64,000 bases of DNA from Candidatus Caldarchaeales archaeon. Its GTDB lineage: Archaea; Thermoproteota; Nitrososphaeria_A; Caldarchaeales; Wolframiiraptoraceae. The stretch lies in assembly GCA_039630055.1 (NCBI GenBank), contig JBCNVN010000004.1:11076-75075 (forward strand), read 5' to 3'. This document shows, in pieces, positions 11,174 through 28,124 of the stretch. The translations under genes and the position numbers were made by a program. How positions within the stretch are numbered: the first letter of the stretch is position 1; each line of letters begins with the position of its first letter. A model generated the notes under the pieces. The model had not been told where the DNA came from. It ran no database searches and saw only the letters and a program-made list of their open reading frames with translations.

Positions 11174-11623
11174 ATGAAGTTTGAAGGTAAACTAAATTTG
11201 AGATCTCGGAGAGAGGATGTCTGGAACTTTATATCAGAACCTGCTAAAGTTATTGAATGTGTCCCAGGCGTCGAAGAATACTCTCTCTCTGAAGGTAAGA
11301 GGATAACAGCAAGAGTTAAAGTATCTATCGGATTTATTAAAGGAACTTTCCATACCTCTAGCAGTGTAGTTGAAGAAGACCATAGTAACTATACCGCCAA
11401 GTTGAAATTAGGTGGTTCAGGTGCAGGAAGCGGTTTTGATGCTTTAGTAGACATAAAGCTAAACGATATAGATGGTGGTACTGAGATGGTCTGGAAGGCT
11501 GATGTAAATGTTTCAGGACCACTAGGAAGCTTAGCTAAACCTATGCTAGAAGGTTATGTAAAAAAGCTTGTAGATCAGCTTTTCGACTGTATTAAACAGA
11601 GAGTTGTAAGCTCAAGTATTTAA
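11174..11623 (+). CDS. CoxG-like SRPBCC-fold protein (Mo-hydroxylase accessory subunit G)
   Basis: 149 aa. The sequence RSRREDVWNFISEPAKVIECVPGVEE...GFIKGTF...GPLGSLAKPMLEGYVKKLVDQLFDCIK fits the CoxG family. The gene heads the Mo-hydroxylase operon. Confidence 0.75.
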   Translation: MKFEGKLNLRSRREDVWNFISEPAKVIECVPGVEEYSLSEGKRITARVKVSIGFIKGTFHTSSSVVEEDHSNYTAKLKLGGSGAGSGFDALVDIKLNDIDGGTEMVWKADVNVSGPLGSLAKPMLEGYVKKLVDQLFDCIKQRVVSSSI

Positions 11624-11677: not shown

Positions 11678-14074
11678 TTGTCCTACAAGTATATTGGAAA
11701 ACCCATTCCCCCTCAAGATGCATTCTATAAAGTTACTGGAACCGCCCAATATACTCTAGATATAGACCTTCCAGGAATGCTTTATTCTAAACTAGTTACC
11801 AGCACCGTACCCCATGCGAAGATAAAGAGGATTGATATAAGTAAGGCTGAAAAAGTTCCAGGAGTAGTCAAAGTCGTAGTAGGAAGAGATTTCCCTTACA
11901 GAGTTGGGATGTATGCTGGAGATAGAGATCTTCTAGCGATTGATAAGGTTAGATGGGTTGGCCACCCAGTAGCAGCCGTTATTGCAGAAGATCTAGAGGC
12001 TGCCGAGAAAGCAATAGATCTTGTTGATGTAGAATATGAAGAGCTGCCAGCAGTATTCGATCCATTAGAAGCTCTTAGACCTGATGCACCTTTAATCCAT
12101 GAGAAGATGGAAGAATATAGACATTCTCCTGCGTTTAGACCCATACCTGGAACGAATATTGCAAATAAGTTCACGTTAGTTAAAGGTGATGTGGAGAAGG
12201 GTTTCAGAGAAGCGGACATAGTAATCGAGGGACAATTTTACATACCTCATGTAAGTCATTCATACATGGAGGTTCAAAACGTTATTGCACATTATCATTT
12301 AGACGGAACCATAGAGATATGGACAAGCTGGCAGAATGTTGCTCCTATCAGGCAGATCATGGCCCTATCTCTAGGAATACCACACAACAAGATTATAGTT
12401 AGGATCCCTTATGTTGGAGGAGGGTTTGGAGGTAAAGCTGGTCTAGGATGGGAAGCTCTAGTGGCCATACTCTCTAAAGAGGCTGGATACAGACCTGTAA
12501 AACTTATCTTATCAAGAAGAGAACAGTTTACATCAGCTGCAGTTAGAGAAGGATTCTACGGATTTGCTAAAGCTGGATTCAAGAAAGATGGCAAGTTTAT
12601 CGCTTACGATGTTAAATTCATATTAGATGCTGGAGCATACGGAGACTACACTGTTAACGTTGGTAGAGCAGTCGGCTACTCTGCTGATGGAAGCTACGAG
12701 ATACCTAACATCAAAGTTGAATCTCTAACTGTTTACACGAATAAGATACCTACAACAGCTCTAAGAGGCTTTGGGTACCCTGAAAGCCACTGGGTTCTCG
12801 AACAGATTATGGATAGAGCAGCACAGAAGATCGGCTTGGATCCTGCAGAGATCAGGAGGATCAATCTAGTCAAGCCAGGTGTATCGGAGACGTGTACAGG
12901 TGAGAGGCTTAGAGAAGATGTTGGAGATCCTCAGAAAGTATTACAAACTTTACTAGAGGGGATAGAATGGGATAAGCCGATCGAAAGTCTGAAAGAACCA
13001 TGGAGGATAAGGTCTAAAGGTTTAGCCCTATTCGTTAAAGGTCCAGCTCAGCCTCCGAATGCTTCCGCCTCGGCCATCTTAAAGTTTAATGAAGATGCTA
13101 GCGTAGACCTATTAGTCTCTACCGGTAACTTTGGGCAGGGAACTGTAACCGCTTTGATCCAGATCGTTGCAGAAGAGTTTGGACTACCATTAGAGAAGGT
13201 GAGGGTAGATTATATTAGAGATACCCATAAATCGGCTTATACTTGGCAGACTGTGGGAAGTAGAGGATTGTTCACAGATGGCATAGCTGTCTTGAGAGCT
13301 GTTGAAGATGCTAAGAAACAGATATTCAAAGTGGCCTCTGAAGTCTTGAGGTGTCCAGAAGAACATCTTGAACTTGTAGATGGAGAAGTAAGAGTAAAGG
13401 GGAGACCATGGGAGAGGATACCTCTAAAAGATATAGTGATGGGCTATACTTATCCTAACGGCAACTCTATTGGAGGTCCGGTAATAGGTAGAGGCGTATT
13501 CATGTCCACCCATACCACATATCTCGATCCTGAAACAGGACAAGGAAATCCGACGATATTCCATACTTTTGGAGGTACAGCAGTAGAGGTTGAAATAAAC
13601 TTGCTCACAGGAGAAGTCGAGGTGTTAAAGGCGGTACAGGTACTCGACCTGGGAAGAGTGATTAACCCACTACTAGTCAAACAACAGGTAAATGGAGGAC
13701 TTCTAATGGGTTTAAGCATAGGATTATATGAGCAGATAAAATTCGATGAGAGAGGATGGGTTATAAATCCCAACTTTACAAATTACTACCTAGTAAGAAT
13801 AAAGGATATTCCTAGAGAAGTTATTAGAAAGTTTATTGAAACACCCCAGCTGGACGGTCCATATGGGGCGAGAGGGATCGGTGAGTTAACAATGATAGGG
13901 GTTGCTCCTGCTATAGCGAATGCAATATTTAGAGCAACAGGTGTAAAAATAGATCGGCTTCCATTAAATCCGGAAAATGTTTGGAAGGCTCTCAATGAGC
14001 AGAGACCCGACCTAGTTAGTGAAGCTATGAATAAGTTTCTAAAATTGGAAGAGAAGGTAGAGGTGAGAATTTGA
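11678..14074 (+). CDS. Xanthine dehydrogenase-family molybdopterin-binding large subunit (aldehyde oxidoreductase/XDH type, copy 1)
   Basis: 798 aa with the motifs YVGGGFGGKAG, TTALRGFGYPE and GPYGARGIGE. It lacks the AYRCSFR loop of true CO dehydrogenases. Confidence 0.9.
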   Translation: MSYKYIGKPIPPQDAFYKVTGTAQYTLDIDLPGMLYSKLVTSTVPHAKIKRIDISKAEKVPGVVKVVVGRDFPYRVGMYAGDRDLLAIDKVRWVGHPVAAVIAEDLEAAEKAIDLVDVEYEELPAVFDPLEALRPDAPLIHEKMEEYRHSPAFRPIPGTNIANKFTLVKGDVEKGFREADIVIEGQFYIPHVSHSYMEVQNVIAHYHLDGTIEIWTSWQNVAPIRQIMALSLGIPHNKIIVRIPYVGGGFGGKAGLGWEALVAILSKEAGYRPVKLILSRREQFTSAAVREGFYGFAKAGFKKDGKFIAYDVKFILDAGAYGDYTVNVGRAVGYSADGSYEIPNIKVESLTVYTNKIPTTALRGFGYPESHWVLEQIMDRAAQKIGLDPAEIRRINLVKPGVSETCTGERLREDVGDPQKVLQTLLEGIEWDKPIESLKEPWRIRSKGLALFVKGPAQPPNASASAILKFNEDASVDLLVSTGNFGQGTVTALIQIVAEEFGLPLEKVRVDYIRDTHKSAYTWQTVGSRGLFTDGIAVLRAVEDAKKQIFKVASEVLRCPEEHLELVDGEVRVKGRPWERIPLKDIVMGYTYPNGNSIGGPVIGRGVFMSTHTTYLDPETGQGNPTIFHTFGGTAVEVEINLLTGEVEVLKAVQVLDLGRVINPLLVKQQVNGGLLMGLSIGLYEQIKFDERGWVINPNFTNYYLVRIKDIPREVIRKFIETPQLDGPYGARGIGELTMIGVAPAIANAIFRATGVKIDRLPLNPENVWKALNEQRPDLVSEAMNKFLKLEEKVEVRI

Positions 14075-14949
14075 GCTTCGGTTCTCCATACTTTACTCTA
14101 CCGGAGTTTACCTATCATAAACCGAAGACTCTCAGTGAGGTCCTTGAGCTATTAGAGAGATATGGTGATGAAGCAAAGATCTTAGCTGGTGGAGTAGGCT
14201 TAATACCGTTTATGAAAGAAAGGCTTATCTCCCCTACACATGTCATAGATATAAAAGAGATATCTGAGTTGAAAAAACTTGAATATAGAAGAGGGGAAGG
14301 ATTAACTATTGGCGCCACTATCACATTCTCAGAGCTAGAATCATATCAGATAGTTAGGGAGAAGTACAAAGCTTTGTATCAAGCGGTAAAAATAGCTTCA
14401 GACAGTATAATAAGAAATAGAGCTACATTGGTAGGAAATATATGCGAGGCTATACCATGGGTTGATGGCCCACCTCCATTAATAGCCTATGATGCTGAAG
14501 TCGAGATTAGAAGCTTGGATAAGGTTAGAAGAGTGTTAGTCGCAGACTTCATTAAAGGCCCAGTAGAGACCGATCTAAAACCTGGAGAGATCGTTACCTC
14601 TATAAAGATACCTGATATACCTGATGATGCAAGAAGTGGATTCATAAAATTTAACACAGGATCGGAGTTCGCTCTAGCAACTATCTCTGCTTATTTGGTG
14701 ATGAAGAAGGAGAAGAGAGATGTGAGGCTAGTCTATGGAGCCATCTCTACTAAACCTATAAGAGCTTTTGAAGCTGAGAAAATCCTTCAAGGCGAAGACG
14801 ACATAAGAAATCTTATACGTTTAGCAGCTGTAAAGGCTTCTGAGGAGGTTGAAGTCGTCTCAGACGTACTGGCTTCTGAAGAATATAGAAGACATCTCGT
14901 CAAAGTACTTACCATGAAGATTTTGATGGATTTGGTGGAGGATGATTAA
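14071..14949 (+). CDS. Mo-hydroxylase FAD-binding medium subunit (CoxM/CutB-like, copy 1)
   Basis: Motifs AKILAGGVGLIPFMKERL and RNRATLVGNI. There is a 4-nt overlap with the large subunit. Confidence 0.9.
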   Translation: MSFGSPYFTLPEFTYHKPKTLSEVLELLERYGDEAKILAGGVGLIPFMKERLISPTHVIDIKEISELKKLEYRRGEGLTIGATITFSELESYQIVREKYKALYQAVKIASDSIIRNRATLVGNICEAIPWVDGPPPLIAYDAEVEIRSLDKVRRVLVADFIKGPVETDLKPGEIVTSIKIPDIPDDARSGFIKFNTGSEFALATISAYLVMKKEKRDVRLVYGAISTKPIRAFEAEKILQGEDDIRNLIRLAAVKASEEVEVVSDVLASEEYRRHLVKVLTMKILMDLVEDD

Positions 14950-14951
14950 GG

Positions 14952-15440
14952 ATGGTTCGAAGAATAAATCTAAAAGTAAATGGATATAGAAGAAGCGTTG
15001 AAGTAAAAGATAATGAACTGCTTCTAGATGTATTAAGAGATAAACTGAAGATAAAGGGTTTGAAGCCAGCTTGCTGGCGTGGTGAATGCGGTCTATGCAC
15101 AGTTATACTGAATGGAAAACTTGTAAAGTCTTGTCTTGTTCTTGCTGTTGAGGTTGATGGTTCTGAGATTGTTACCGTTGAGGGTTTGGCTAGGGATGGT
15201 GAGCTAACACCATTACAGAGAGCATTCATAGAGCATGGAGCACTACAATGCGGATTCTGTACACCAGCGTTCGTCCTCGCCTCCCATCAACTGCTACTCG
15301 AAAATCCCGATCCATCCGATGAAGAGATAAAAGAGAGATTAAGCGGAATACTCTGTAGATGCGGTACATATTATGAGATTATAGAGGCGATTAAGAGTGC
15401 ATCAAAGTATTATCGAAAAGATGTTACTGATCGGTCATAA
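14952..15440 (+). CDS. Mo-hydroxylase [2Fe-2S]-binding small subunit (CoxS/CutC-like, copy 1)
   Basis: The two Fe-S motifs are CWRGECGLCTV and QCGFCTPAF...CRCGTY. Confidence 0.9.
   Translation: MVRRINLKVNGYRRSVEVKDNELLLDVLRDKLKIKGLKPACWRGECGLCTVILNGKLVKSCLVLAVEVDGSEIVTVEGLARDGELTPLQRAFIEHGALQCGFCTPAFVLASHQLLLENPDPSDEEIKERLSGILCRCGTYYEIIEAIKSASKYYRKDVTDRS
15122..15272. repeat. 151-bp segment 100% identical, in inverted orientation, to 27800..27950 (copy A)
   Basis: I aligned the two segments base by base by hand. The reverse complement of 27800-27950 equals 15122-15272 with no mismatch. The flanking bases differ on both sides. Confidence 0.95.
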
Positions 15441-15608
15441 GATCTTATCCAATTTTTCTTTTAATTTCTTCTCTAGACTTGGAGGCGGCTGCCAATTTAC
15501 TTGGACCACTCTTACCCCCTGGTCTCTTAGAGAGAGATAGAATATCTCTAAACCAATGTTTACTGCTTTAATCTCTCCCTTAAATAGATTTAATATTTTC
15601 TCACTCAT
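15435..15608 (-). CDS. Candidate small protein (57 aa) downstream of fdrA-like gene; below the ORF-track cut-off
   Basis: The ATG at 15608 lies 11 nt after the fdrA TAG and is preceded by GGGGGATAAAAG. My translation is MSEKILNLFKGEIKAVNIGLEIFYLSLRDQGVRVVQVNWQPPPSLEKKLKEKLDKIL. The stop overlaps the coxS 3' end by 6 nt. Confidence 0.4.
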   Translation of the reverse strand: MSEKILNLFKGEIKAVNIGLEIFYLSLRDQGVRVVQVNWQPPPSLEKKLKEKLDKIL

Positions 15609-15619
15609 CTTTTATCCCC

Positions 15620-17257
15620 CTATACTTCTATGAACTCTCTGAAAACCCTCTTCAACTTTTCATCAGATATCCTACAATGTTTTGCTATTATAGCCGATGT
15701 AAAAGCCATCAAGGCATTCGTTGGAAAGACCAGTACACCCAAATTCTTCAACTTCTCTTCTTGTACCATTGAGTTCTGAGGATCTGCCTCTGTACCACAC
15801 ACATGTCCTAGAATAACTATCTGCCTAGAGTCTTTCTCAGCTATCTTCCTAGCCTCAATTATAGAGTCCTGCATTGCTCCAACTGGGTCTGGATGAGCAC
15901 CATAACCTAGAACAAAGTCTAAGGTTATTACTGCAACTTCAGGATCTTTCGCCTCTTCTATCAATCTTATCTTTCTTATTGTTGGGTCGATCATCGGATG
16001 GGGTCTACCGGCTGTAAACTCTTCCTCACCAAGATCTACTACTGTGTGCATTCGGCTCTTGTAAGAGTCTTCTAGCTTATACTTTAAGTCTAGAGGAGCA
16101 TTACTGTATACATCTTTACCTATAAGTTCACGATATATTAGAAGCGATTCATACATTAGTGTTCCTCCAGTGTAGAGTGCTCTCAAATATCTCTGATCTG
16201 CTTTCAAATTCTTTGAAAGGTTTCTACAGAGTTTCTTTAACTCGGATAGCTTTAGAGAGATCTTTGATCTAGCTTCTCTGTATTTCTCTGGACTGTTCAT
16301 TTTGACCATGTCTAATACTGCTAATTGGAGGCTTCTAACTGAATGTATCCTTTTAGCTAATTTCTTTGGAGGAATATACTTTCTAGTCCCCAGGAAACAT
16401 AAGACGAATGGTTTCCTAGTCTCTCCCTCAATAAATTGGATGATCTTCTTTAGTACAGAAGAATCTGGAGGCTTTGAAATAACCATTATAGATTTTGTAT
16501 CTTCATCTGCTTCGAGAGCCTTAATACAATCTATAGTCATTATTCCTCCCACTGCCTCCTTTACATCATTTCCACCTACACCGAGACCTTGTGAGATCCC
16601 TAGACCAACCTTATCTAAGAGCACGCTAACTTCTTGAAGTCCGGTTCCGGCTGCTGCAACCACACCGATAGGACCAGTTCTAACTTTGTTAGCGAAGGCT
16701 ATGGCTTTACCGTTTATGATCGATGTTCCCGCTCCAGGTCCTAGAACCAGTAAGCCTCTCTCACTAGCATACTTCTTTAATTCTACTTCATCTTCTATTG
16801 GAACATGGTCACTAAACAGATGAATATGTATATTTTTCTCAAGTATTTTTAGGGCTAATTCTTTAACGTACTGACCAGGTATAGAGATTACTGCTAGATT
16901 GACGTCTGGCATGTCTTCCAATGCGGAATCAAGAGAAAAGTATGTCTTCTCTATAGATGGTTGGAGGCTGATAGAGGGCTTAGTCAACATGTCTTCTATA
17001 TTTGAGATTATATTTGGAAGGAGGTTTTCATCTCTCGCTTTAATGGCTAATACTAGATCGTTAGGTGTGGCCGCTCTCCCCTCATCTGTTAGAAGACCCA
17101 ACCTTTCCAAGATTTCCTTGTTTGTGCTAGTCCCCATTACTAGAGCTGCATCAACCACTCCATCTATCTTCTTAACCTCTTCAGATAACTGCATCAGCTG
17201 CAATGAATCTCTGAAGAAATTCTCCTTAACTACATTCTTTACGACATCCATGATCAA
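15620..17257 (-). CDS. fdrA: FdrA-family protein (succinyl-CoA-synthetase-alpha-like, acyl-CoA synthetase FdrA)
   Basis: 545 aa. The N-terminus reads NFFRDSLQLMQLSEEVKKIDGVVDAALVMGT...NDLVLAIKA. It has CoA-ligase-like segments LLVLGPGAGTSIINGKAIAFAN and VVAAAGTGLQE. Confidence 0.8.
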   Translation of the reverse strand: MIMDVVKNVVKENFFRDSLQLMQLSEEVKKIDGVVDAALVMGTSTNKEILERLGLLTDEGRAATPNDLVLAIKARDENLLPNIISNIEDMLTKPSISLQPSIEKTYFSLDSALEDMPDVNLAVISIPGQYVKELALKILEKNIHIHLFSDHVPIEDEVELKKYASERGLLVLGPGAGTSIINGKAIAFANKVRTGPIGVVAAAGTGLQEVSVLLDKVGLGISQGLGVGGNDVKEAVGGIMTIDCIKALEADEDTKSIMVISKPPDSSVLKKIIQFIEGETRKPFVLCFLGTRKYIPPKKLAKRIHSVRSLQLAVLDMVKMNSPEKYREARSKISLKLSELKKLCRNLSKNLKADQRYLRALYTGGTLMYESLLIYRELIGKDVYSNAPLDLKYKLEDSYKSRMHTVVDLGEEEFTAGRPHPMIDPTIRKIRLIEEAKDPEVAVITLDFVLGYGAHPDPVGAMQDSIIEARKIAEKDSRQIVILGHVCGTEADPQNSMVQEEKLKNLGVLVFPTNALMAFTSAIIAKHCRISDEKLKRVFREFIEV

Positions 17258-17369
17258 TCGTCTTAGATTGGATTACGCTATGGAATAAATATTTCTAAGA
17301 CATAGTCTTAATTCAGATCCCATTTACATGAGATATAAAGTCTTTTAACTCTAGAAGAATGATGAGGGC

Positions 17370-17663
17370 CTATCCTCCACCTATGATCTCTACCAAGTCT
17401 ATTACGTCAATCGATATACTGTCATTCTCTCTGAGCGGTGTCTCAACCCCCTTCAAAAGCTTGATACTATGCCCATTAACCAAGACCATTAAATTATCCC
17501 TCAACCTACCTTCATGATACAATGTCTTCGTAAAATCTTCTCCCAAGATTCTTGAAATATCTTCTATCAGCTCTCTAACATTTTTGGGGGTCTTGTCCAG
17601 TATGATCTCATCCCGGTTAGCAATCTCTTTTAATCTAGAGTATAATCTAACTCTAATACCCAT
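17370..17663 (-). CDS. MoaD/ThiS-family beta-grasp (ubiquitin-like) protein ending in Gly-Gly-Gly
   Basis: From the internal ATG at 17663 the protein reads MGIRVRLYSRLKEIANRDEIILDKTPKNVRELIEDI...LMVLVNGHSIKLLKGVETPLRENDSISIDVIDLVEIIGGG-stop. The track ORF extends to 17756, but that would overlap the upstream gene by 46 nt. Confidence 0.65.
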   Translation of the reverse strand: MGIRVRLYSRLKEIANRDEIILDKTPKNVRELIEDISRILGEDFTKTLYHEGRLRDNLMVLVNGHSIKLLKGVETPLRENDSISIDVIDLVEIIGGG

Positions 17664-17710
17664 CTCATATTTTTGATATAGATGACCAGCATAAATATTT
17701 TCTATCGCTA

Positions 17711-18640
17711 CTATGAAAGACCTGTAATTAGGTTTATCAGCTTCTCGGTAAGACATGTATTCTTTACATAGTCTAGGAAGGATGATAAGCCGGTCAATAC
17801 TCCTAAAGTTATATCTAAACCAGAAGTATGTCCTCTTCTCGCAAGATTGAGGATCGAGTCTATAAAAACTCCTTCATCTCTTGAAGCTATAGAATACAGT
17901 AATTGATGTAAGTGCTCATCATAAAAACCATCTTCTGCATATTTTAAAAACATTGCACTCTCCCAACTAGTATGGCTAAAGAGAAATTCATCATCTAGCA
18001 TTATCTTGGGAATTTGGAATTCTTCACCTATTATATTTAAGAAGCTGATGAATCCGATCAAGAAATCATCGCCTGAGGGTGTGAATCCACCACCTACACC
18101 GATGAGATCCCTATAATTTTCAACTTTCCTTAATGGTTCCAAGTCTCCCCTCGAAAATGGATAGACTACTTCTATCAAGAATCTTCTCAACTGCTCTATC
18201 TCTAAGATAGGTATAATGCTAGAAGGTATCGAGTAAAGGATGATTATAGTGTTCAATCCTTTAATAAACATTTTCTCGTATATCTTCTCTCGGAGATCGT
18301 CTAGATGATTGATATTTCCAATCGGTAGAGATGAGTATCGCTGAGCATTCCTTAAATCGATCTCGATTCTTCCAATCCTAATTTTACTCTCTTCAATATC
18401 AATACGATCTCGTAGTTCGATTTGTAGGTAGAATGGTGTTTCGAGAGTTTTTTGAGAAATGTTTATGGTGTATGGAGACCGGACATTCTTCTGTGTTATT
18501 ATTATCATATCTCTACATACTTTAACGTATATCGTATTAGCGAATATATGATGGATTGAAAACTCACCATAATAATTATCTAAAATCTCTATAGCCTTCT
18601 CTCCAATACTTGATGCATATAATTTATATCCCATACTCAT
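17711..18640 (-). CDS. DUF2877-like protein (YlbF/AllH-like)
   Basis: The motifs DLIGVGGGFTPSGDDFLIGF and RRGHTSGLDITLG match my recollection of the DUF2877 signature. There is a 17-nt overlap with the upstream DUF1116 gene. Confidence 0.6.
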   Translation of the reverse strand: MSMGYKLYASSIGEKAIEILDNYYGEFSIHHIFANTIYVKVCRDMIIITQKNVRSPYTINISQKTLETPFYLQIELRDRIDIEESKIRIGRIEIDLRNAQRYSSLPIGNINHLDDLREKIYEKMFIKGLNTIIILYSIPSSIIPILEIEQLRRFLIEVVYPFSRGDLEPLRKVENYRDLIGVGGGFTPSGDDFLIGFISFLNIIGEEFQIPKIMLDDEFLFSHTSWESAMFLKYAEDGFYDEHLHQLLYSIASRDEGVFIDSILNLARRGHTSGLDITLGVLTGLSSFLDYVKNTCLTEKLINLITGLS

Positions 18641-19892
18641 CTACATATGCTTCGAACGCGCTCTTGAATACTTCGAATGGAAAGGAAACTATGCCCGCGC
18701 CTATCTGGCCTACCCCTGCCTCCTTATGAGCTATACCTGTATTGATTGTAGGGACTATCCCAGTCTTTAAAATCTTTCTGATATCTATTCCAGTAGGGGT
18801 TCCCTGAAAGTTCAGGTAAGGTATCTGGAAATACTTATGCTTAGTATAAGTAATCTCATACATCTTATTTGTTATCTCGATAGCCATCTGGACGCTTCCA
18901 CCTACCCATGAGACGATCGCTGGAGCTGCTGCCATAGCAAATCCTCCGAACCCCGCGGTCTCGGTGATCGAGCTGTCCCCTAAGTCAGGGTTAGCATCTG
19001 ACTCTGAGTATCCTGGAAACCATACTCCCTTAGGGATTGGAGCAGGAGAGGTGAACCATCTACTACCTAACCCACTAACCCATATCCCAGTCTCGGTTCC
19101 ATTTCTAGACATAACCGTTACTATTGTGCTATACTTGATGTTGTGAGCGGTTAAAGTCATCGCCTTCGCAGCCGCCATCCCCAAGTTCAAAGTTGTAAAA
19201 TTGTTTCCAGCTAGGAAACTGTATACTTCTCTTATCGTCTGTATGTTGAATCCTGTGTTGATCATGTATGGGGTCATCTCTTTTAAGAGGAGGGCCGTGG
19301 CCGCGTTGTACCTATTATGGCAGTCATCACCCATCTGTAATGCTTGCGTTATGATGCTCTTCAAAGATACTCCACCTTTATCTTTTACTATCTCTCTTAT
19401 CGTTGCTTGGAGGAGGGGTGCAACAGTCGACTCAATCCATCTAAGCCTATCTATTACATCACTACTATAAGCTCCATATCTTAGAACTTTCCCTATCCCT
19501 TCATTAAAATTGGTATATGTTCTATTCCCATATTTTTTATCATATACTTCGTATATAGGCATTCTTGGAGATATGATCCCTGACATTGGTCCGACAGCAT
19601 AGTGAATATGAGTAGGTTCTAGAGTGACTTGACCAGATTTAACAAGCTTCTCAGCTTCTTCGGGGGTATCCGCCCATCCCTCATATATTATAGCACCTAT
19701 TACCGCACCCTTCATAGGTCCGCTGGCCTTCTCCCATTTTAGAGGTGGACCAGCATGGAGAAGTAGATAGTCTTTCATCCCAGGTATCTTTTCTTTTGCT
19801 GTACCTACATCAACCCATACGGGATCAGACTCCATCATTCTTTCAACAGCTTCTCTATTAGCCTTCTCAATCTCATCTTTTATCATAGACAT
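18624..19892 (-). CDS. DUF1116-family protein (YlbE/AllG-like)
   Basis: The segment LLLHAGPPLKWEKASGPMKGAVIGAIIYEGWADTPEEAEKL closely parallels the E. coli YlbE N-terminal region as I recall it. Confidence 0.75.
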   Translation of the reverse strand: MSMIKDEIEKANREAVERMMESDPVWVDVGTAKEKIPGMKDYLLLHAGPPLKWEKASGPMKGAVIGAIIYEGWADTPEEAEKLVKSGQVTLEPTHIHYAVGPMSGIISPRMPIYEVYDKKYGNRTYTNFNEGIGKVLRYGAYSSDVIDRLRWIESTVAPLLQATIREIVKDKGGVSLKSIITQALQMGDDCHNRYNAATALLLKEMTPYMINTGFNIQTIREVYSFLAGNNFTTLNLGMAAAKAMTLTAHNIKYSTIVTVMSRNGTETGIWVSGLGSRWFTSPAPIPKGVWFPGYSESDANPDLGDSSITETAGFGGFAMAAAPAIVSWVGGSVQMAIEITNKMYEITYTKHKYFQIPYLNFQGTPTGIDIRKILKTGIVPTINTGIAHKEAGVGQIGAGIVSFPFEVFKSAFEAYVDEYGI

Positions 19893-20057
19893 ATTTGATC
19901 AACTTTTTAGAAAGCTCAGCTATTAAAAAACCTTGATCATGTAGCAATAGAGTGAAGAGTATAATAGAGAGACCCTACTAAAGCTTTTGATCTGATAGAT
20001 TCTCTATATATGGAAATGTTTTAAGATTGTTCTTCGAATCCTATGGTATGGTGAAGA

Positions 20058-20987
20058 GTGATGGTGGGTGCTGTTATCATGAAGAAGAGAGGCGAGACTT
20101 CTAGACTTCTACGTGAAGAACTGGAGAGGAAGGGGATAATAGTTACACCCGGAGTATTCAATCCTTTATCTGCGATGCTTGCAGAGAAGATGGGGTTTAG
20201 AGCAGTATATATCTCGGGGGCAGCTATAACAGCTTCGCTCGGCCTACCGGATATCGGCTTGATAACTATGGATGAGATGGTTAGAATGGTCAAGTATATT
20301 ACAGATGCTGTTGATATACCTGTTATAGTTGATGCAGATACTGGATATGGTGAGGCTTTAAACGTGGTTAGAGCTGTTGGAGAATTTGAGAAGGTAGGGG
20401 CGGCAGCTATACAGATAGAAGATCAGATTCTTCCAAAGAAGTGTGGACATCTCTCTGGTAAAAAGCTTATAGAGCCGATAGATATGGCTAAGAAGATTAG
20501 GGCTGCAGTAGATGCAAGAAAGAATCCAGATCTCGTAATTATTGCTAGAACAGATGCTAGAGGTGTGAACGGTTTTGAAGATGCTGTAGAGAGGGCGAAG
20601 ATTTATCTAGAAGCTGGAGCGGACGTCATCTTTCCAGAGGCATTAGAGTCTGAAGAAGAGTTTATAGAGTTCGCTGAGAGGATAGACAGCCCCCTTCTAG
20701 CTAACATGACCGAGTTCGGCAAGTCTCCAATAATATCCTATAAGAGATTGGAAGAGATAGGATACAAGTTCGTCATCTATCCTGTAACTTTGCTGAGGCT
20801 TGCCATGGCCGCTATCAGAGAAGGTTTAACAACCTTGATAGAAGATGGATCCCAAGAGAAGATGATCTCGAAGATGTTCACTCGGAAAGAACTGTATGAA
20901 CTAATCCACTATGATGAATATGAAGATTTTGATAAAAGAGTATCTGAAGAAGTTGAGGCAAAGGTTGGTAGAGTATGGATAAGATAA
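20058..20987 (+). CDS. prpB: Methylisocitrate lyase / PEP-mutase superfamily protein
   Basis: Motifs VTPGVFNPLSAMLAEKMGFRAVYISGAA, VDADTGYGEALN and IEDQILPKKCGHLSGK. The true start may be the ATG at 20079 (MKKRGETS). Confidence 0.85.
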   Translation: MMVGAVIMKKRGETSRLLREELERKGIIVTPGVFNPLSAMLAEKMGFRAVYISGAAITASLGLPDIGLITMDEMVRMVKYITDAVDIPVIVDADTGYGEALNVVRAVGEFEKVGAAAIQIEDQILPKKCGHLSGKKLIEPIDMAKKIRAAVDARKNPDLVIIARTDARGVNGFEDAVERAKIYLEAGADVIFPEALESEEEFIEFAERIDSPLLANMTEFGKSPIISYKRLEEIGYKFVIYPVTLLRLAMAAIREGLTTLIEDGSQEKMISKMFTRKELYELIHYDEYEDFDKRVSEEVEAKVGRVWIR

Positions 20988-22336
20988 CTCGAATCTTAGC
21001 AGCATATGCTTATGATATAGATTACGGGAAGCTAGCCTCGGAGACGATCCACGAGGTTAAGAGGAGGATAATAGATTCTCTCGGAGTGGCTTTTGCTGCT
21101 TACTATTCTGAGCCAGTCATCAAGAGCCGTAGACTTGCATCACTATACTCTACAGAAAGAGGTGGACGTATAATAGGCACTAGATATAGGGTTTCACCCG
21201 ACTGGGCTTCATTCATAGATGGGATAATGATAAGATACCATGATTACAATGATACGTATCTATCTAAAGAGCCTCTACATCCTAGTGATATGATCGCTGC
21301 CGCATTCGGTCTAGGAGATACATTAAATTCTTCAGGAATGGACATAATTACAAGCATAGCTATCGGCTACGAGATAGCTGTAACCCTTTGTGATGCTGGA
21401 AGCTTAAGGAGGAGAGGATGGGATCATGTAAACTTTCTAGGAATAGGTAGTAACATTCTCTCATGTAAACTTTTAGGATTAGACCTAGAAAAGATACAAC
21501 ATTCTCTCTCCATATATGTCGTCCCCCACGCTTCGATGAGGCAGACTAGGGTTGGAGAACTCAGCATGTGGAAAGGGTCTGCCGCGGCGAACTCGACTAG
21601 AAACGCTGTATTCAGCGCTTTAATTGCAAGAGAAGGATTTACAGGTCCCTTCAAACCATTTGAGGGAGAGATGGGCTTCATAAAACAGCTCCTACAAGGG
21701 GATTTCGATATGAAGGCATTCACATCATTAGAGGATAAGAAGACTCCCCTGAGGATCCTCGATACTTACATAAAGAAGTATCCGGTAGAATATCATGCTC
21801 AAACAGCTGTAGATGCAGCTTTGAAGCTGAGAGAGCAGGTTCACGTAAAAGATATAGAGAAGATCTTGATAGAGACCTTTCAGGCAGCTTACGATATTAT
21901 TGGTCCTAAAGATCCTGAGAAATGGGATCCTCACACTAAAGAGACCGCAGACCATTCTTTAATGTGGATAGTGGCCGCTACTCTAGCATGGGGAAACATT
22001 ACGATCGAAAAGTATCAAGATATAAGAAATCCCCAAGTACTCTCTTTGATGAAGCTTATGGAGGTCAAGGTTGACCCAGAGATAGATGAGAAGTATCCAA
22101 GATCCTTTCCAAATAGGATAACGATAAAAACCAGAGATGGGAGGAGATTTACAGAAGAGGTAGAGTATGCTAGAGGACATCCAAAAAATCCTATGTCAGA
22201 TGAAGAAGTTGAGAAAAAATTCAATGAGCTAACAGAGAATATTATTCCAAGAGATCAGAGGAGGAGATTGTTGGAAAAAATCTGGAGACTGGAAAATTAC
22301 AATATAGAAGAGATCATTGATGATACAGTAATATAG
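20975..22336 (+). CDS. prpD: MmgE/PrpD-family 2-methylcitrate dehydratase
   Basis: 453 aa. It overlaps prpB by 13 nt. It has typical PrpD-family segments (RIIDSLGVAFAA..., HPSDMIAAAF, ADHSLMW). Confidence 0.8.
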   Translation: MDKITRILAAYAYDIDYGKLASETIHEVKRRIIDSLGVAFAAYYSEPVIKSRRLASLYSTERGGRIIGTRYRVSPDWASFIDGIMIRYHDYNDTYLSKEPLHPSDMIAAAFGLGDTLNSSGMDIITSIAIGYEIAVTLCDAGSLRRRGWDHVNFLGIGSNILSCKLLGLDLEKIQHSLSIYVVPHASMRQTRVGELSMWKGSAAANSTRNAVFSALIAREGFTGPFKPFEGEMGFIKQLLQGDFDMKAFTSLEDKKTPLRILDTYIKKYPVEYHAQTAVDAALKLREQVHVKDIEKILIETFQAAYDIIGPKDPEKWDPHTKETADHSLMWIVAATLAWGNITIEKYQDIRNPQVLSLMKLMEVKVDPEIDEKYPRSFPNRITIKTRDGRRFTEEVEYARGHPKNPMSDEEVEKKFNELTENIIPRDQRRRLLEKIWRLENYNIEEIIDDTVI

Positions 22337-22693
22337 ATTCTATGCTATTGAGTGATCTTAAAATAAAATATGGGATAAGCTTGAAGATACGCTGGAGAAA
22401 GAGCACATTTCTCCATTCAGATACTGTTGAGAAGTGGAAGACTCTACTTTGCTTAGATGAGAGAGTTAATTTCTCAATATTAAGAATAAGAGGTTAAGAC
22501 TATAGTCGATCTTAAATTTAGTTGATGAAAATGGCCTAGTTTAAAATTTGATCAATGTGATGAGGATTCTTGACAATAGATAAAAGAAGCTTCCAGATTA
22601 GAGACGTAGACATTAAAAGAGCTCTATATTTTTTCCTGATATATGACCTATCCTTAAATACATCTTACATTTTAAGAGTGTCTGTGAGCGTGA

Positions 22694-24277
22694 ATGGGTG
22701 AGAAAGCTCATAGAACTATTGAAGAGTTGATTAATGAACTAAACGATATGAGGAGGAAGGCTTTAATCGGTGGAGGACTGGAAGCTATAGAGAAACAGCA
22801 TCAAGCTGGAAAATTAACGGCCAGAGAGAGGATTAACATATTGTTGGACAAAGATAGCTTCATAGAATTAGATGCCTTCATGATGCATCGAGCCACCGAA
22901 TTCGGGATGGATAAGAGAAAAGTTTTAGGAGATGGAATAGTTACTGGTCTCGGAAGAATAGATGGTAGATTGGTCGCTGTCTTCGCTCAAGATGCTACTT
23001 TTATGGGAGGCTCAATAGGAGAAGTACATGCCAACAAGATCTCTAGAACACTCGACCGAGCAATGGAGCTAGGGATACCAATAATAGCTTTAAACGATTC
23101 TGGGGGTGCACGGATTCAAGAAGGTGTTACATCACTTCATGCCATAGGAGAATATTTTGCAAGAAATGTTAGAGCGTCAGGAGTAATCCCTCAAATTACT
23201 GTAATGATGGGGCCGTGTGCAGGTGGTGCTGTATATTCGCCAGCACTCGGAGACTTCATAATAATGGTAGAAAAGACTAGCTACATGTTTATCACGGGGC
23301 CACGAGTGGTAAAAGCCGTAATGGGTGAAGATGTTTCTTTCGAGGAGCTAGGTGGACCATACGTTCATGCACAAACTTCTGGGGTGGCTGATTTCATCGT
23401 ACCAAACGATGTTGAAGCCTTGAATCTTGTGAGGAGACTGATATCCTATCTTCCATCGAATAGTCTTGAAGAGCCGCCGATAATAGACGTCGGAGACCCT
23501 GCAGATAGAATAAATGAAGAATTAAATTATATCGTACCCTCCGATCCGAAGAAAAGCTATGACGTGAAAGAATTGATAAATCTGGTCTTTGATAAGGATA
23601 GTTTCCTAGAGGTTAAGAGAGATTTCGCACCGAATGTTGTAGTAGGTTTTGCAAGGCTTGCCGGAATATCTGTAGGAGTTGTAGCGAACCAGCCAGCTTC
23701 ACTGGCAGGCGTCCTAGATATAGATTCTTCTGATAAGATCGCTCGATTCGTAAGATTCTGCGACTGCTTTAATATCCCACTTATAACCTTCGTCGATGTT
23801 CCTGGATACCTACCTGGAACTAGACAAGAACATGGAGGAATAATCAGACATGGAGCCAAAGTAATATATGCTTATGTCGAGGCCACGGTTCCGAAGATCT
23901 CAGTCATAGTTAGGAAAGCATATGGTGGAGCCTATATAGCGATGTGCAGTAAAAGTTTGGGGGCTGACATGGTCTTCGCCTATCCCACTGCTGAGATAGC
24001 GGTCATGGGACCCGAGGGGGCAGTAGAAATAATATATAGAAAGGAGATCGATTCTGCTAAACCAGAGGAGAGGGAGGATATTATATCTAGGCTGATTAGA
24101 GAGTATAGATTAAAGTTTGCAAATCCATACATAGCTGCGAGCTATGGATACATCAACATGGTAATCGAGCCTAAGGAGACTAGACCGATGCTTGCCAAAG
24201 CTTTAAAGATGCTTATGAATGGTAAGAGAACACTTGTATCTAGGCTTCCGAAGAAACATGGAAACATGCCATTATGA
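22694..24277 (+). CDS. mmdA: Methylmalonyl-CoA carboxyltransferase (decarboxylase alpha subunit / acyl-CoA carboxylase beta-type)
   Basis: 527 aa with GKLTARERINILLD, FAQDATFMGGSIG, DSGGARIQEG and FVDVPGYLPG. Confidence 0.9.
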   Translation: MGEKAHRTIEELINELNDMRRKALIGGGLEAIEKQHQAGKLTARERINILLDKDSFIELDAFMMHRATEFGMDKRKVLGDGIVTGLGRIDGRLVAVFAQDATFMGGSIGEVHANKISRTLDRAMELGIPIIALNDSGGARIQEGVTSLHAIGEYFARNVRASGVIPQITVMMGPCAGGAVYSPALGDFIIMVEKTSYMFITGPRVVKAVMGEDVSFEELGGPYVHAQTSGVADFIVPNDVEALNLVRRLISYLPSNSLEEPPIIDVGDPADRINEELNYIVPSDPKKSYDVKELINLVFDKDSFLEVKRDFAPNVVVGFARLAGISVGVVANQPASLAGVLDIDSSDKIARFVRFCDCFNIPLITFVDVPGYLPGTRQEHGGIIRHGAKVIYAYVEATVPKISVIVRKAYGGAYIAMCSKSLGADMVFAYPTAEIAVMGPEGAVEIIYRKEIDSAKPEEREDIISRLIREYRLKFANPYIAASYGYINMVIEPKETRPMLAKALKMLMNGKRTLVSRLPKKHGNMPL

Positions 24278-25375
24278 TCCGAGAAACTGTGGTAGAAGAG
24301 ATAGTACGACGGCTCCAGCTATGACAGATGTTATCTGACCACCTGTATTTGTTGCTATCGTATGCATCAGTATCCAGTTATCTGGATCTTCTTGACGAGC
24401 GATTAAATGAGCTGTCCTCGCGGCCATGGGGAATGCTGAGATACCTGTAGCTCCAATCAAAGGGTTTATCTTTCCTCCAGTTAGATAGTATGCTAGCTTT
24501 GCTGCTAGTAGCCCGAAAGATATGTCCGTTATGAAGGCTATGACTCCGAGCCCGAAGACCATAAGGGTTGAGAGATTTATGAATTTCTCTGCAAGCATGG
24601 TTCCACCAATACTCAAACCTAGTAATAGAGTCACAATATTCGATAGTTCATTCTGGGCAGATTTTGACAGCCTCTCCACTACACCACACTCTTTTAAGAA
24701 GTTTCCAAACATCAAGGCCCCTATCAAAGGTAACCCTTTCGGAGCTATCAAACCTATTACGATCGTTACAATTATTGGGAAGATGACTTTTAATGTTTTA
24801 GGGTATCTTCCCGGCTTATAATACATTCGGGCTCGTCGCTCTCTTCTACTTAAAAGTAGCTTTGAGATTGGTACGAGGAGCAGCGGGGCGATAGAGATAT
24901 ACATGTAGGCTGAGACAGCTATAGGTCCAAGTAAATCCTTTGCATATTTAGAGGCTACATATATTGCTGTCGGCCCATCCATGGCGCCTATTACGCCTAT
25001 ACTGGCGGCTCTCTCAGGTGTGAACCCTAGGGCCAAAGCTAAGGTGATTGTTAGGGGTATCCCTATCTGTGCAGGGATGGTCATAAGAAGAACCCATGGC
25101 ATCTCAAAAAGGGGGCCGAAGTCTATCATGGCTCCAATACCGATGAAGATGAGGATTGGGAATATCTCTGTAAGTATACCGTAATCGTAAAGATATCTGA
25201 TGAATCCTCCGACCTCCATCAACTCTCCGTATGGTATGTTTACTAAGACTGCTCCAAACCCTATCGGGATCAAGAGTAGAGGTTCATACCCTTTCTTAAC
25301 CGCTAAGTAGATGAGTACAAACCCGACAGCAATCATAATTATATTGCCTGCATGTCCCAGTAAAAACTCCATCAT
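24272..25375 (-). CDS. mmdB: Na+-translocating decarboxylase beta subunit (OadB/MmdB/GcdB family)
   Basis: 367-aa polytopic membrane protein with IGAMDGPTAIY and GISAFPMAAR-type segments. Its 3' end overlaps mmdA by 6 nt in convergent orientation. Confidence 0.85.
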   Translation of the reverse strand: MMEFLLGHAGNIIMIAVGFVLIYLAVKKGYEPLLLIPIGFGAVLVNIPYGELMEVGGFIRYLYDYGILTEIFPILIFIGIGAMIDFGPLFEMPWVLLMTIPAQIGIPLTITLALALGFTPERAASIGVIGAMDGPTAIYVASKYAKDLLGPIAVSAYMYISIAPLLLVPISKLLLSRRERRARMYYKPGRYPKTLKVIFPIIVTIVIGLIAPKGLPLIGALMFGNFLKECGVVERLSKSAQNELSNIVTLLLGLSIGGTMLAEKFINLSTLMVFGLGVIAFITDISFGLLAAKLAYYLTGGKINPLIGATGISAFPMAARTAHLIARQEDPDNWILMHTIATNTGGQITSVIAGAVVLSLLPQFLGS

Positions 25376-25384
25376 TAATCCACC

Positions 25385-25792
25385 CTACTCAATCTCTATT
25401 AAACTATCGCCTGCATTAACAGAAGCTCCTTCTTGAACATATATCCGCTTCACTCTACCAGATGTAGGAGAATATATCATATTCTCCATCTTCATACTCT
25501 CCAATACTATTACAGGATCTCCAGCTTTAACCGGATCACCTTCCCTACATTTTATCGATACTATAGTTCCGGGGATCGGTGCCCTCACCAGACCTCGTGC
25601 TTTTACTGTCTCAACCCTTGCCTCTGGAATAGGAGTTGGAGATATTCTCTTTTCCTCTCGTTGGGTTGGAATAACTGTAGGTGGAGGTGTCATAGCTACT
25701 TCTTCTACGCCAACCTCCTCAACCTCAACTTCGAATACTTTACCTTCTACTGTCACTCGGAACCTTCTCTTCAATTCAATGCACCTCTCCAT
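25385..25792 (-). CDS. mmdC: Biotin carboxyl carrier subunit (decarboxylase gamma subunit)
   Basis: A Pro/Thr-rich linker is followed by a biotinyl domain with the VLESMKMEN biotinylation motif. Confidence 0.8.
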   Translation of the reverse strand: MERCIELKRRFRVTVEGKVFEVEVEEVGVEEVAMTPPPTVIPTQREEKRISPTPIPEARVETVKARGLVRAPIPGTIVSIKCREGDPVKAGDPVIVLESMKMENMIYSPTSGRVKRIYVQEGASVNAGDSLIEIE

Positions 25793-26108
25793 CCCGTAAA
25801 GAATTTAGGATACTTGAAATCTTCCATATTGATGGAGGAGTTGGTGAGCCCTCTTTTATATGAACAGTTTTTGTAGTCTGAGATAAAGATGCGATTACAG
25901 CGCTAATTCCTGCGATTACTTCAAGGCTTTCTCCGACGATCTTCTTTACTTCGATTTCAGGTTTTTCTTTGATTTCTACCGGTCTATGATATGTGGATCG
26001 TCGAAGTAGATAGATCATTATTAGTAGGATAAGGACCCCTCCTGATACGTATAGCAGCCAGTTCAAGGTAAAGACTAGACTTAAATCGATATAATTAGTT
26101 GAGACCAC
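25776..26108 (-). CDS. Small membrane subunit of the decarboxylase (OadG/MmdD-like), tentative
   Basis: GTG start and a single N-terminal TM helix (LLYVSGGVLILLIMIYLL). It overlaps the carrier gene by 17 nt. The assignment rests on position and topology. Confidence 0.4.
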   Translation of the reverse strand: MVSTNYIDLSLVFTLNWLLYVSGGVLILLIMIYLLRRSTYHRPVEIKEKPEIEVKKIVGESLEVIAGISAVIASLSQTTKTVHIKEGSPTPPSIWKISSILNSLRDGEVH

Positions 26109-26309
26109 GTAATGAATGAAAAAGACGTTCTATTTTAGTATTGCATATATTGGGATTCAATCTTCTATGTACTCATTAGAGGCGAACTTTAGCAGTCCAC
26201 TTCTATTCAAGGTTCCAACATATTCAAGAGATAATAACATAGTATATGGAAGAATAAGATTCATATATGAATTTTACATTAATACATTAATAACAATAAA
26301 TGATCTTAA

Positions 26310-27077
26310 ATGTATGAAAACGTGATGGAAGAAGTAGGATTAAGAGATTCAAAGATCTATTTTTACGACGTTGTCAATTCCACTCAAGACTTAGCAAAAA
26401 GTCTCGGGTCGGTTGAAGAATTCACCGTGGTGGTAGCTAGAGAGCAACGCAGAGGTCGAGGGAGGATGGGGAGAGAATGGTACTCTCCTCTAGGTGGCCT
26501 ATGGTTTACGATAATCCTATACCCTAAAACGCCTATCTCAACTTATGCCATCCTTTCCTTATTAAGCTCATTATCGGTAGTCAGAACAATTGAAGACGTT
26601 ACTGGACTTAAACCTTATATTAAGTGGCCAAATGACGTATATTTGAATGGAAAGAAGGTTGCAGGAGTACTTGTAGAGTCAGATGTTATTGGAGAACTGA
26701 TGATGAAAGCTTTTGTCGGGATAGGAGTGAACCTGAATTTTCGAATAGAATCAATACCTGAAAGACTTAGAGAAAGTGCAACAACAATCTTTGAAGAATA
26801 TGGCAAGATGGTAGATACTGGAACCTTCTTATTAAAAATCCTACAAGAGTTAAAGAAGTATTATGGAGTATATAGAATCGGTTCCCATCAAAGATTAATC
26901 GAAGAGGTAAAGAGTAAGATGAACATGATTGGAAGAAAGGTCATAGTCTCTCTGGGTCATAGAGAATTGGTGGGCATGGTGAGAGACCTTGAGATGAATG
27001 GAAACCTAATCATCGAATCTTCAAATGTAAAGAATATTTTAAATCCCTCAGAGATCAAAAGACTAGAACTTATCTAG
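26310..27077 (+). CDS. birA: Biotin-[acetyl-CoA-carboxylase] ligase
   Basis: Motifs QRRGRGRMGREWYSPLGG (GRGRxGR) and KWPNDVYLNGKKVAGVL. Confidence 0.85.
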   Translation: MYENVMEEVGLRDSKIYFYDVVNSTQDLAKSLGSVEEFTVVVAREQRRGRGRMGREWYSPLGGLWFTIILYPKTPISTYAILSLLSSLSVVRTIEDVTGLKPYIKWPNDVYLNGKKVAGVLVESDVIGELMMKAFVGIGVNLNFRIESIPERLRESATTIFEEYGKMVDTGTFLLKILQELKKYYGVYRIGSHQRLIEEVKSKMNMIGRKVIVSLGHRELVGMVRDLEMNGNLIIESSNVKNILNPSEIKRLELI

Positions 27078-27637
27078 CTTCTAGCTCTATATACTATCTC
27101 TGAGAAATCTTTCCTCTTTAAGAGATATAGTATTACTGCTATCTTCAGCCCGTCTCCTGGAAGAAATATTAACGCACCCATCGTTATCCCTCTACTTATT
27201 GCATCAGACAATACTATTCCAGAGAAATTTGATAACCAGAAGATCAACCATGGAACACCAAGTCCATATATAACCAATTCAGCGATGATACAAGCGGTCA
27301 ATGCCTTGATAATCCGCTTATCACTCATCGGATCATAAAGTATACCTGTGATAGCTGCTGCTATTGGAAAAGATATTAGATATCCCGTAGTTGGACCTAA
27401 AAATGTTGTGAAACCTCCTCTAAAACCTGCGAAGACAGGTAGGCCTGCTAAACCCATACCAAGATATATCATCTGGGATAGAAATCCAGTCTTGTATCCT
27501 CCAACTATCCCGGAAAGCATTATGAATAATGTCTGGAGGGTTATGGGAACTGGACCGATATAGAAAGCTATCTGGGCTCCGAGGAATGTAAAGACTGCAA
27601 AGATGCTTGATAAAACGATTAGACGGGTTTTAATCAT
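27074..27637 (-). CDS. bioY: Biotin transporter BioY
   Basis: 187-aa six-TM-like protein with VPITLQTLFIMLSG and GPTTGYL motifs. Confidence 0.8.
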   Translation of the reverse strand: MIKTRLIVLSSIFAVFTFLGAQIAFYIGPVPITLQTLFIMLSGIVGGYKTGFLSQMIYLGMGLAGLPVFAGFRGGFTTFLGPTTGYLISFPIAAAITGILYDPMSDKRIIKALTACIIAELVIYGLGVPWLIFWLSNFSGIVLSDAISRGITMGALIFLPGDGLKIAVILYLLKRKDFSEIVYRARS

Positions 27638-27653
27638 AGTTAAAAAAGGATGA

Positions 27654-28124
27654 TTATTTTTCTTTTTTAGCGACGCTCAATATTGCATCTATTATCGGTT
27701 TGTATCCTGTACATCTACAGAGAAGACCATTCAAGGCTTCTACAACTTCTTCTCTTGATGGTTTTGGATTATGATTGATGAGCCAGTGACCTACTATCAA
27801 GAACGCTGGTGTACAGAATCCGCATTGTAGTGCTCCATGCTCTATGAATGCTCTCTGTAATGGTGTTAGCTCACCATCCCTAGCCAAACCCTCAACGGTA
27901 ACAATCTCAGAACCATCAACCTCAACAGCAAGAACAAGACAAGACTTTACAGGCTCACCATCCAATAAAACTGTACATAGTCCGCAATCCCCTCTTTCGC
28001 ATGCTTTCTTCGTTCCTTTCAATTTAAGCCCATCCCTAATCAACCATAAGAGTGTCTTATTTGATTCTACTTCAAAGGTCTTCTCCACCCCATTTATCTT
28101 GAAGCTTATCCTTCTTTTCTCCAA
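27654..28124 (-). CDS. Mo-hydroxylase [2Fe-2S]-binding small subunit (copy 2)
   Basis: Fe-S motifs CERGDCGLCTV and QCGFCTPAF...CRCTGY. Confidence 0.9.
   Translation of the reverse strand: MEKRRISFKINGVEKTFEVESNKTLLWLIRDGLKLKGTKKACERGDCGLCTVLLDGEPVKSCLVLAVEVDGSEIVTVEGLARDGELTPLQRAFIEHGALQCGFCTPAFLIVGHWLINHNPKPSREEVVEALNGLLCRCTGYKPIIDAILSVAKKEK
27800..27950. repeat. 151-bp segment 100% identical, in inverted orientation, to 15122..15272 (copy B)
   Basis: Same hand alignment as copy A. Both copies encode KSCLVLAVEVDGSEIVTVEGLARDGELTPLQRAFIEHGALQCGFCTPAF. Confidence 0.95.

Follow-up and report, generated by a model that had tools for sequence, protein, structure and literature searches.

Likely recurrent ectopic gene conversion between the [2Fe-2S] small-subunit genes of two anciently diverged operons in the archaeal genus Candidatus Geocrenenecus

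How can two genes that separated long ago carry, in the middle of their coding regions, an uninterrupted run of identical DNA? This question is raised by a 64,000-nt stretch of a Candidatus Caldarchaeales genome (contig JBCNVN010000004.1 of assembly GCA_039630055.1; hereafter the window); the genomes closest to it are those of Candidatus Geocrenenecus species (family Wolframiiraptoraceae). An earlier note on this DNA had read the run as the trace of a recent ectopic gene conversion between two paralogs, and had named an assembly chimera and an embedded nucleotide-level functional element as alternatives. A published paper on Geocrenenecus and Wolframiiraptoraceae mentions neither the enzymes concerned nor gene conversion (PMC9246946).

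The two genes belong to convergent operons, A on the plus strand and B on the minus strand, with 12.2 kb between them. The gene order in operon B is large, FAD, and small subunit, followed by BioY. The genes are listed below, together with the family libraries or domains on which their assignments rest.

11174-11623, plus strand: CoxG-like gene of operon A (Pfam, NCBIfam)
11678-14074, plus strand: Mo-cofactor large subunit of operon A, L_A (Pfam, NCBIfam)
14071-14949, plus strand: FAD medium subunit of operon A (Pfam, NCBIfam)
14952..15440, plus strand: small [2Fe-2S] subunit gene of operon A, 162 aa (Pfam Fer2 + Fer2_2)
27654..28124, minus strand: small [2Fe-2S] subunit gene of operon B, 156 aa, TTG start (Pfam Fer2 + Fer2_2)
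28125-28985, minus strand: FAD medium subunit of operon B (Pfam)
28992-31310, minus strand: Mo-cofactor large subunit of operon B, L_B (Pfam)

Judging from these domains, both operons are predicted to encode three-subunit molybdenum/tungsten hydroxylases of the xanthine dehydrogenase / CO dehydrogenase family. The small subunit has the features of that family: a plant-type ferredoxin domain at the N-terminus, a Fer2_2 domain at the C-terminus, and adjoining FAD and Mo-cofactor genes. All eight cluster cysteines are present in its translation (Cys41/46/49/61 and Cys100/103/135/137). The nearest solved structure to small subunit A is 4ZOH chain C (E 6e-49), and the PDB matches of the small subunit include 4ZOH_C, 3HRD_D, and 1FFU_A. 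None of the six subunits reached a curated equivalog cut-off of NCBIfam when compared with XdhABC xanthine dehydrogenase, glyceraldehyde dehydrogenase, 4-hydroxybenzoyl-CoA reductase, and aerobic CO dehydrogenase; for example, L_B scored 567 bits against the XdhA_XDHase model, whose cut-off is 780.

The two operons are not products of a recent duplication. L_A and L_B are 53% identical and the medium subunits 44%, and the peptide GEGLTIGAT of the medium subunits, which the earlier note had described as differently encoded in the two operons, indeed shows four synonymous differences in nine codons. Moreover, L_B is 60% identical to a Hadarchaeum large subunit versus 53% to L_A, and L_A is 75% identical to the enzyme of Benthortus, so that A and B should be viewed as old paralogs or xenologs. 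The arrangement of operon A is syntenic in Benthortus and G. huangii.

Against this background, the inverted-repeat search and a direct comparison of the two strands located the following identical segments.

15122..15272, plus strand: gene A copy of the converted tract (last base of codon 57, then codons V58-F107)
27801..27951, minus strand: gene B copy of the converted tract

The copy in gene A and the reverse complement of the copy in gene B are identical at 151 of 151 bases. The length and perfection of the match had been noticed previously, but the partner had been placed at 27800..27950, one base off; when those positions are taken literally and in register, only 33 of the 151 bases match. 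At the edges, the copies differ by t vs c (15121) and g vs t (15273), in agreement with the earlier note. Outside the tract, the nucleotide identity of genes A and B is 58% upstream (approximately 64% in the repeat-search alignment) and 50% downstream. A hand count on the translations gave protein identities of approximately 54% for the N-terminal flank and 46% for the C-terminal flank, in line with the divergence outside the block on which the conversion proposal was built. No such tract arose in 100 dinucleotide-preserving shuffles (0/100), which, together with the low identity of the flanks, excludes chance as its source. Other converted tracts were sought in the large and medium subunit genes and none was found there, the repeat search giving ordinary homology of 70-71%. 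Elsewhere in the window, a 42-nt direct repeat with 74% identity lies at 34766-34807 and 37078-37119; its copies have an exact 20-nt end in common (TCTATATTTCTCAACCCA region).

In protein A, the tract encodes V58-F107 of 162 residues, that is, the inter-domain linker and three of the eight cluster cysteines (Cys61, Cys100, and Cys103). Cys61 is the fourth and last ligand of the N-terminal cluster, and Cys100 and Cys103 lie within QCGFCTPAF, so the block does cover the end of the first Fe-S domain and the QCGFCTPAF ligands, as had been proposed.

We scanned genomes, one per species, using as the query a 38-mer taken from the tract. Two inverted copies of the 38-mer were found on one contig in G. 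dongiae, G. huangii, G. arthurdayi, and the MAG SRP104967_co1_24, and all such copy pairs are convergent and 9.7-13.4 kb apart. The single-cell genome J15 has one copy, its contig ending short of the expected position of B. Protein-based locus searches had given the impression that each species carries only A or only B; this was rejected, as the DNA scan with the 38-mer reveals both. The sister genus Benthortus has a 38-mer version of its own, present in a single copy, and the scan gave no evidence of the process beyond Geocrenenecus. Neither small subunit of the window has an exact-protein record in the assembly index, and the genome and metagenome scans yielded no independent assembly of the species to which the window belongs.

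The A and B genes of five genomes were aligned with MAFFT, and the extent of the tract within each genome was read by eye from the alignment:

Window: perfect A/B tract of 151 nt
G. dongiae: perfect A/B tract of 186 nt
G. huangii: perfect A/B tract of 150 nt
SRP104967: perfect A/B tract of 150 nt
G. arthurdayi: perfect A/B tract of 117 nt, then two mismatches, then 24 nt

Within each genome, the A and B copies of the tract are thus 100% identical in the window, G. dongiae, G. huangii, and SRP104967, and approximately 97% identical in G. arthurdayi. Between species, the tract differs at 13-20 of the 151 positions (9-13%; identity 87-92%), mostly at synonymous sites. At the approximately 30 variable columns of the tract, both paralogs of a genome carry the same state, with exceptions limited to a few positions in G. 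arthurdayi and one edge position in SRP104967. Species-specific amino-acid changes are likewise common to both paralogs, such as TELQK in G. huangii, SDIL...AKNGELAPIQR in G. arthurdayi, and an A->S replacement in the J15 lineage.

The flanks behave in the opposite way, in that they follow orthology. For gene A, the window and G. huangii are 81% identical upstream and 76% downstream of the tract; for gene B, the window and G. dongiae are 79% and 80% identical, versus 58% and 50% between the two paralogs of the window. The A-type and B-type N- and C-terminal sequences are each kept across species. When gene B of G. dongiae is compared with gene A of G. huangii, the tract is 91% identical and the flanks only 49-61%.

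Metagenome contigs extended the pattern. An independent 81-kb assembly of G. dongiae (L171/L172) has the same 186-nt tract. In the J15 lineage, a B gene (L170) and an A contig (L180) from the same metagenome have the Ala->Ser codon in common. A seventh lineage, represented by two contigs of one metagenome (L174/L176), shares GAGGTATTG between its A and B copies. Hence, in the window and at least six other Geocrenenecus lineages, a segment of approximately 150 nt evolves in concert and its flanks evolve as ordinary orthologs.

These data allow the tract to be weighed against a nucleotide-level element (an RNA structure, a regulatory or antisense target, or codon-level selection) held constant by purifying selection. 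In favor of such an element, the 38-mer, and to a lesser degree a segment of approximately 45 nt at the 3' end of the tract, is invariant or nearly so at synonymous sites in all Geocrenenecus copies, the degenerate codons of conserved peptide runs in the flanks vary almost everywhere, and the 5' half of the tract is unusually GT-rich by composition skew. The tract as a whole, however, is far from invariant: its copies vary between species, mostly silently, and the variants are common to the two paralogs of a genome, a combination that indicates conversion and not constraint. Its identity falls to 62-65% with the nearest B-type relatives outside the genus and lies at 62-75% for relatives outside the genus overall. 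Two other genomes with two small-subunit paralogs, examined as negative controls, contain no identical block between the paralogs, and protein constraint was rejected on this ground as the cause of the DNA identity. The tract has no Rfam match and shows no excess of RNA structure over shuffles (folding z-scores of +1.53 for the sense and -0.93 for the antisense strand), so a structured-RNA candidate was discarded as well. A scan for bacterial-type promoters and terminators gave only the background level. Taken together, we regard purifying selection on a DNA-level element as an extremely improbable origin of the 151-bp identity, and the suggestion of such an element did not survive comparison with related genomes. 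The sole Rfam match in the window is a tRNA-Arg (CCG) at 1527-1618; it probably contains an intron, since it spans 92 nt versus 71 positions in the model.

By comparison, we consider it very probable that the 151-bp identity was left by the most recent of repeated rounds of non-reciprocal homologous recombination, i.e., ectopic gene conversion, between the small-subunit genes of two anciently diverged operons. This conclusion is drawn from identity counts, the shuffle test, and alignments read by eye. The central proposal of the earlier note, conversion between old paralogs, is therefore upheld, as the copies within a genome carry common species-specific variants and the flanks follow orthology. 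Its word "recent" fits the latest round, given the zero divergence in the window, whereas a single event does not fit: the process has been recurrent, genus-wide, and active in both directions, with lineage-specific variants in both copies of seven lineages and tract lengths of 117-186 nt.

Could the identity have been produced by the assembly instead, the two loci being truly different and the block being created by repeat collapse, bubble popping, or mis-polishing? The length of 151 nt is close to a typical read length and above common k-mer sizes. Five of the metagenome contigs (L174, L176, L178, L180, and L181), or the stretches of them that were compared, start or stop inside or beside the tract. 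Two others, L175 and L177, are A/B chimeras, which indicates that assemblers struggle at this locus. On the other hand, the same mosaic recurs in assemblies of six or more further lineages, made in different studies with different assemblers; these include four GTDB MAGs, a single-cell genome matched by metagenome contigs, and JGI contigs of 81 and 172 kb, and contigs of 64-172 kb cross both copies. Collapse would yield shared species variants only if the copies were already approximately 95% or more alike, and the very breaking of contigs at the tract implies that the reads are identical there over a k-mer length. In addition, assemblies of the G. arthurdayi type retain 2-6 A/B differences within the tract. 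We therefore find an assembly artefact extremely unlikely, and a chimera peculiar to the window's assembly, which had been named as an alternative, is contradicted by the recurrence of the pattern. The contig ends are compatible with assembly-graph breaks at a real repeat, which would leave the locus often fragmented in public assemblies. Bubble popping could still mean that the count of exactly zero differences in the window is truly up to a few, but it cannot create shared species-specific variants, and the G. arthurdayi assemblies keep their A/B differences.

The latter differences also give some insight into the turnover of the tract under gene conversion. In a strain similar to G. arthurdayi, represented by a 172-kb contig (Ga0272445_1000020; L168:6584-7076 vs L169:9071-9563), approximately six A/B differences are present in the tract, several of them non-synonymous changes in A. 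It follows that the tract decays by mutation between conversions, and the zero divergence in the window would mark a recent reset by conversion.

A further possibility is a reversible inversion of the DNA between the inverted tracts, with the tracts as its crossover sites; through it the C-terminal halves of the two Fe-S subunits would be swapped, and the identity would be kept for this role or arise as its by-product. The segment concerned is the following.

15441..27653, no strand assigned: spacer between the inverted copies, 12.2 kb, metabolic genes

The spacer contains FdrA-like, ThiS-like, AllH, AllG, PEP-mutase/ICL-family, PrpD, carboxyltransferase, OAD-beta, biotin carrier, biotin ligase, and BioY genes. 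The FdrA-like (with CoA-ligase domains), ThiS-like, AllH, and AllG genes at 15620-19892, directly downstream of operon A, form the oxamate carbamoyltransferase set of allantoin/purine catabolism, and this set hints at a purine-related substrate for operon A. At 20058-22336 there are a PEP-mutase/isocitrate-lyase-family gene and a PrpD gene of the 2-methylcitrate dehydratase family, both of which are absent from the G. dongiae spacer and account for the spacing of 12.2 kb in the window versus 9.7 kb in G. dongiae. The genes at 22694-27637, beside operon B (carboxyltransferase, beta subunit of a Na+-translocating decarboxylase, biotin carrier, biotin-protein ligase, and BioY transporter), look like a biotin-dependent decarboxylase module with its cofactor supply.

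Two short metagenome contigs have exactly the structure that such an inversion predicts, with the tract between a 5' part of B type and a 3' part of A type, and they come from two lineages: L175:2563-3055 (Ga0105163_1007336, 3.8 kb) is of the G. huangii type and L177:1596-2088 (Ga0197142_1029795, 2.5 kb) of the J15 type. The inverted orientation and the spacing are also conserved in all species. Nevertheless, contigs as short as these are what misassembly across a repeat longer than k would give, and the reciprocal A-5'/B-3' contig was not seen in the metagenome scan. L175 and L177 may be inversion/crossover isomers, or they may have been misassembled at the repeat; in every long contig and MAG the arrangement is parental (A-5'/A-3' and B-5'/B-3'). 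The gene order and orientation of the spacer are alike in the window, G. dongiae, and G. huangii, so in these genomes no inversion has been fixed and the outcome of the exchange is non-reciprocal. Furthermore, a Pfam search detected no recombinase domain in the spacer or the adjoining genes, and with one orientation in all long assemblies the candidate of a site-specific invertible segment, or a shufflon-like switch, was dropped. Overall, a recombination switch seems very unlikely as the explanation of the tract.

Conversion by itself leaves one feature of the tract poorly explained, namely the segment that served as our query, which lies at the 5' end of the tract.

15126..15163, plus strand: 38-nt GT-rich invariant stretch, copy A (codons K S C L V L A V E V D G S)
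27910..27947, minus strand: 38-nt invariant stretch, copy B (same sequence as copy A)

This 38-mer (AAGTCTTGTCTTGTTCTTGCTGTTGAGGTTGATGGTTC) is strongly GT-rich, and nearly all of its codons end in T. It is invariant, synonymous sites included, in all Geocrenenecus A and B copies, among them six sequences that were retrieved by protein similarity and not by the 38-mer query. Such invariance would not be predicted by neutral concerted evolution. It may result from nucleotide-level selection, from exchange between co-occurring species, or from a role as a pairing site. RecA/Rad51-type proteins have been reported to prefer GT-rich DNA, and the 38-mer may be a pairing anchor; a constraint acting on top of conversion could also explain its invariance. 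A stronger version of this idea gives the tract a role beyond that of a side effect of homology: either selection would maintain the GT-rich 38-mer as a pairing site, through which the Fe-S core of the two enzymes stays one shared, co-evolving module, or the inverted tracts would be crossover sites for spacer inversion, as hinted by the two chimeric contigs. We judge this active role of the tract to be unlikely.

In all five genomes, the downstream edge lies just past the Phe codon of TPAF and varies by no more than four alignment columns; beyond it, the proteins are at once paralog-specific (VLASHQLL... vs LIVGHWLI...). Four of the five also agree in their upstream edge to within five columns. 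In gene A of G. dongiae, the tract reaches 32 nt further upstream and includes B-type codons for 'NGEP' (L162:586-1059 vs L158:2740-3210), which means that the upstream limit is not absolute, and gene A of SRP104967 contains, besides the main tract and separated from it by two mismatches, a further B-type patch of 12 nt. The presence of B-type sequence in these A genes indicates that conversion has been bidirectional and patchy. The diagnostic residues of the tract are nearer to A-type outgroups (Benthortus L005 and L004) than to B-type outgroups from Hadarchaeia. Based on these residues, we infer with moderate confidence that the segment was probably A-type originally and overwrote B, later events having occurred in both directions.

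A simple scheme may account for these observations. Strand exchange would be seeded in the ends of the segment, which are highly similar, and the spread of the tract would be stopped where the identity of the flanks falls abruptly to approximately 50%, since heteroduplex extension is unlikely there. Alternatively or additionally, selection may act against hybrids in which the partner-specific N- and C-terminal parts of the small subunit, which would contact the paralog-specific large and FAD subunits, are swapped. Each conversion would restore the homology that enables the next one, and the process might thus sustain itself.

Several known systems resemble the case described here. In Salmonella and E. 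coli, tufA and tufB form an inverted gene pair that conversion keeps alike, and the segment between them is occasionally inverted; the tuf genes are near-identical over their whole length and functionally redundant, whereas the genes in Geocrenenecus serve different enzymes and are only approximately 50% identical outside the tract. For the thermosome subunit genes of Crenarchaeota, conversion is confined to part of the gene.

Another parallel comes from methanogens, in which mtrA-1 and mtrA-2 have undergone long-lasting gene conversion limited to one domain (PMC4632066). As in Geocrenenecus, archaeal paralogs are homogenised over part of the gene in many species and the rest remains paralog-specific. 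The mtrA copies, however, adjoin each other in tandem in a single operon, and their conversion takes in an entire domain, whereas here the genes belong to inverted, separate operons approximately 12 kb apart and only approximately 150 nt are affected in mid-gene, with divergent sequence on both sides. More generally, long-lasting recurrent concerted evolution in prokaryotes has been documented for 26 genes (PMC6053082). Those cases are alike in that paralogs within a genome are closer than orthologs in several lineages and encode subunits of important complexes; they differ in that here one-third of the gene is involved and the time depth is that of a genus, without calibration. A text search of that paper found no mention of xanthine dehydrogenase, molybdenum enzymes, 2Fe-2S, or ferredoxin, and the present family appears not to be listed among its cases.

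With respect to the recombination process, conversion in the hyperthermophilic archaeon Sulfolobus acidocaldarius is short-patch, unidirectional, and sometimes discontinuous, with donor tracts of tens to a few hundred bp (PMC3367456). These sizes fit both the tracts of approximately 150 nt observed here and the separate patch in gene A of SRP104967. The S. acidocaldarius events took place between alleles in laboratory transformation or conjugation, whereas those in Geocrenenecus are natural, ectopic, between paralogs, and fixed in species. By analogy, Geocrenenecus is inferred to use recombination machinery like that of S. acidocaldarius. The Geocrenenecus locus adds a new example to a process already known, distinguished by a short central tract with divergent sequence on both sides, its location in inverted and non-adjacent operons for different enzymes, and precise boundaries that recur.

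The locus offers a clean natural record of homologous recombination in an uncultivated genus of thermophilic archaea, in which conversion in both directions as well as patchy and decaying tracts are visible and tract boundaries are reproducible within a few bases in seven lineages. From this record, rough estimates of the tract length and of the homology needed for ectopic conversion can be obtained in organisms that are unculturable. There are also practical consequences: the repeat breaks or scrambles metagenome assemblies at this locus, and phylogenies of CoxS/XdhC-type proteins from these genomes are misleading unless the tract is masked. For the enzymes themselves, the pattern means that the Fe-S electron-transfer core is interchangeable between two enzymes whose other subunits are 44-53% identical, and that the N- and C-terminal parts of the small subunit are not exchanged.
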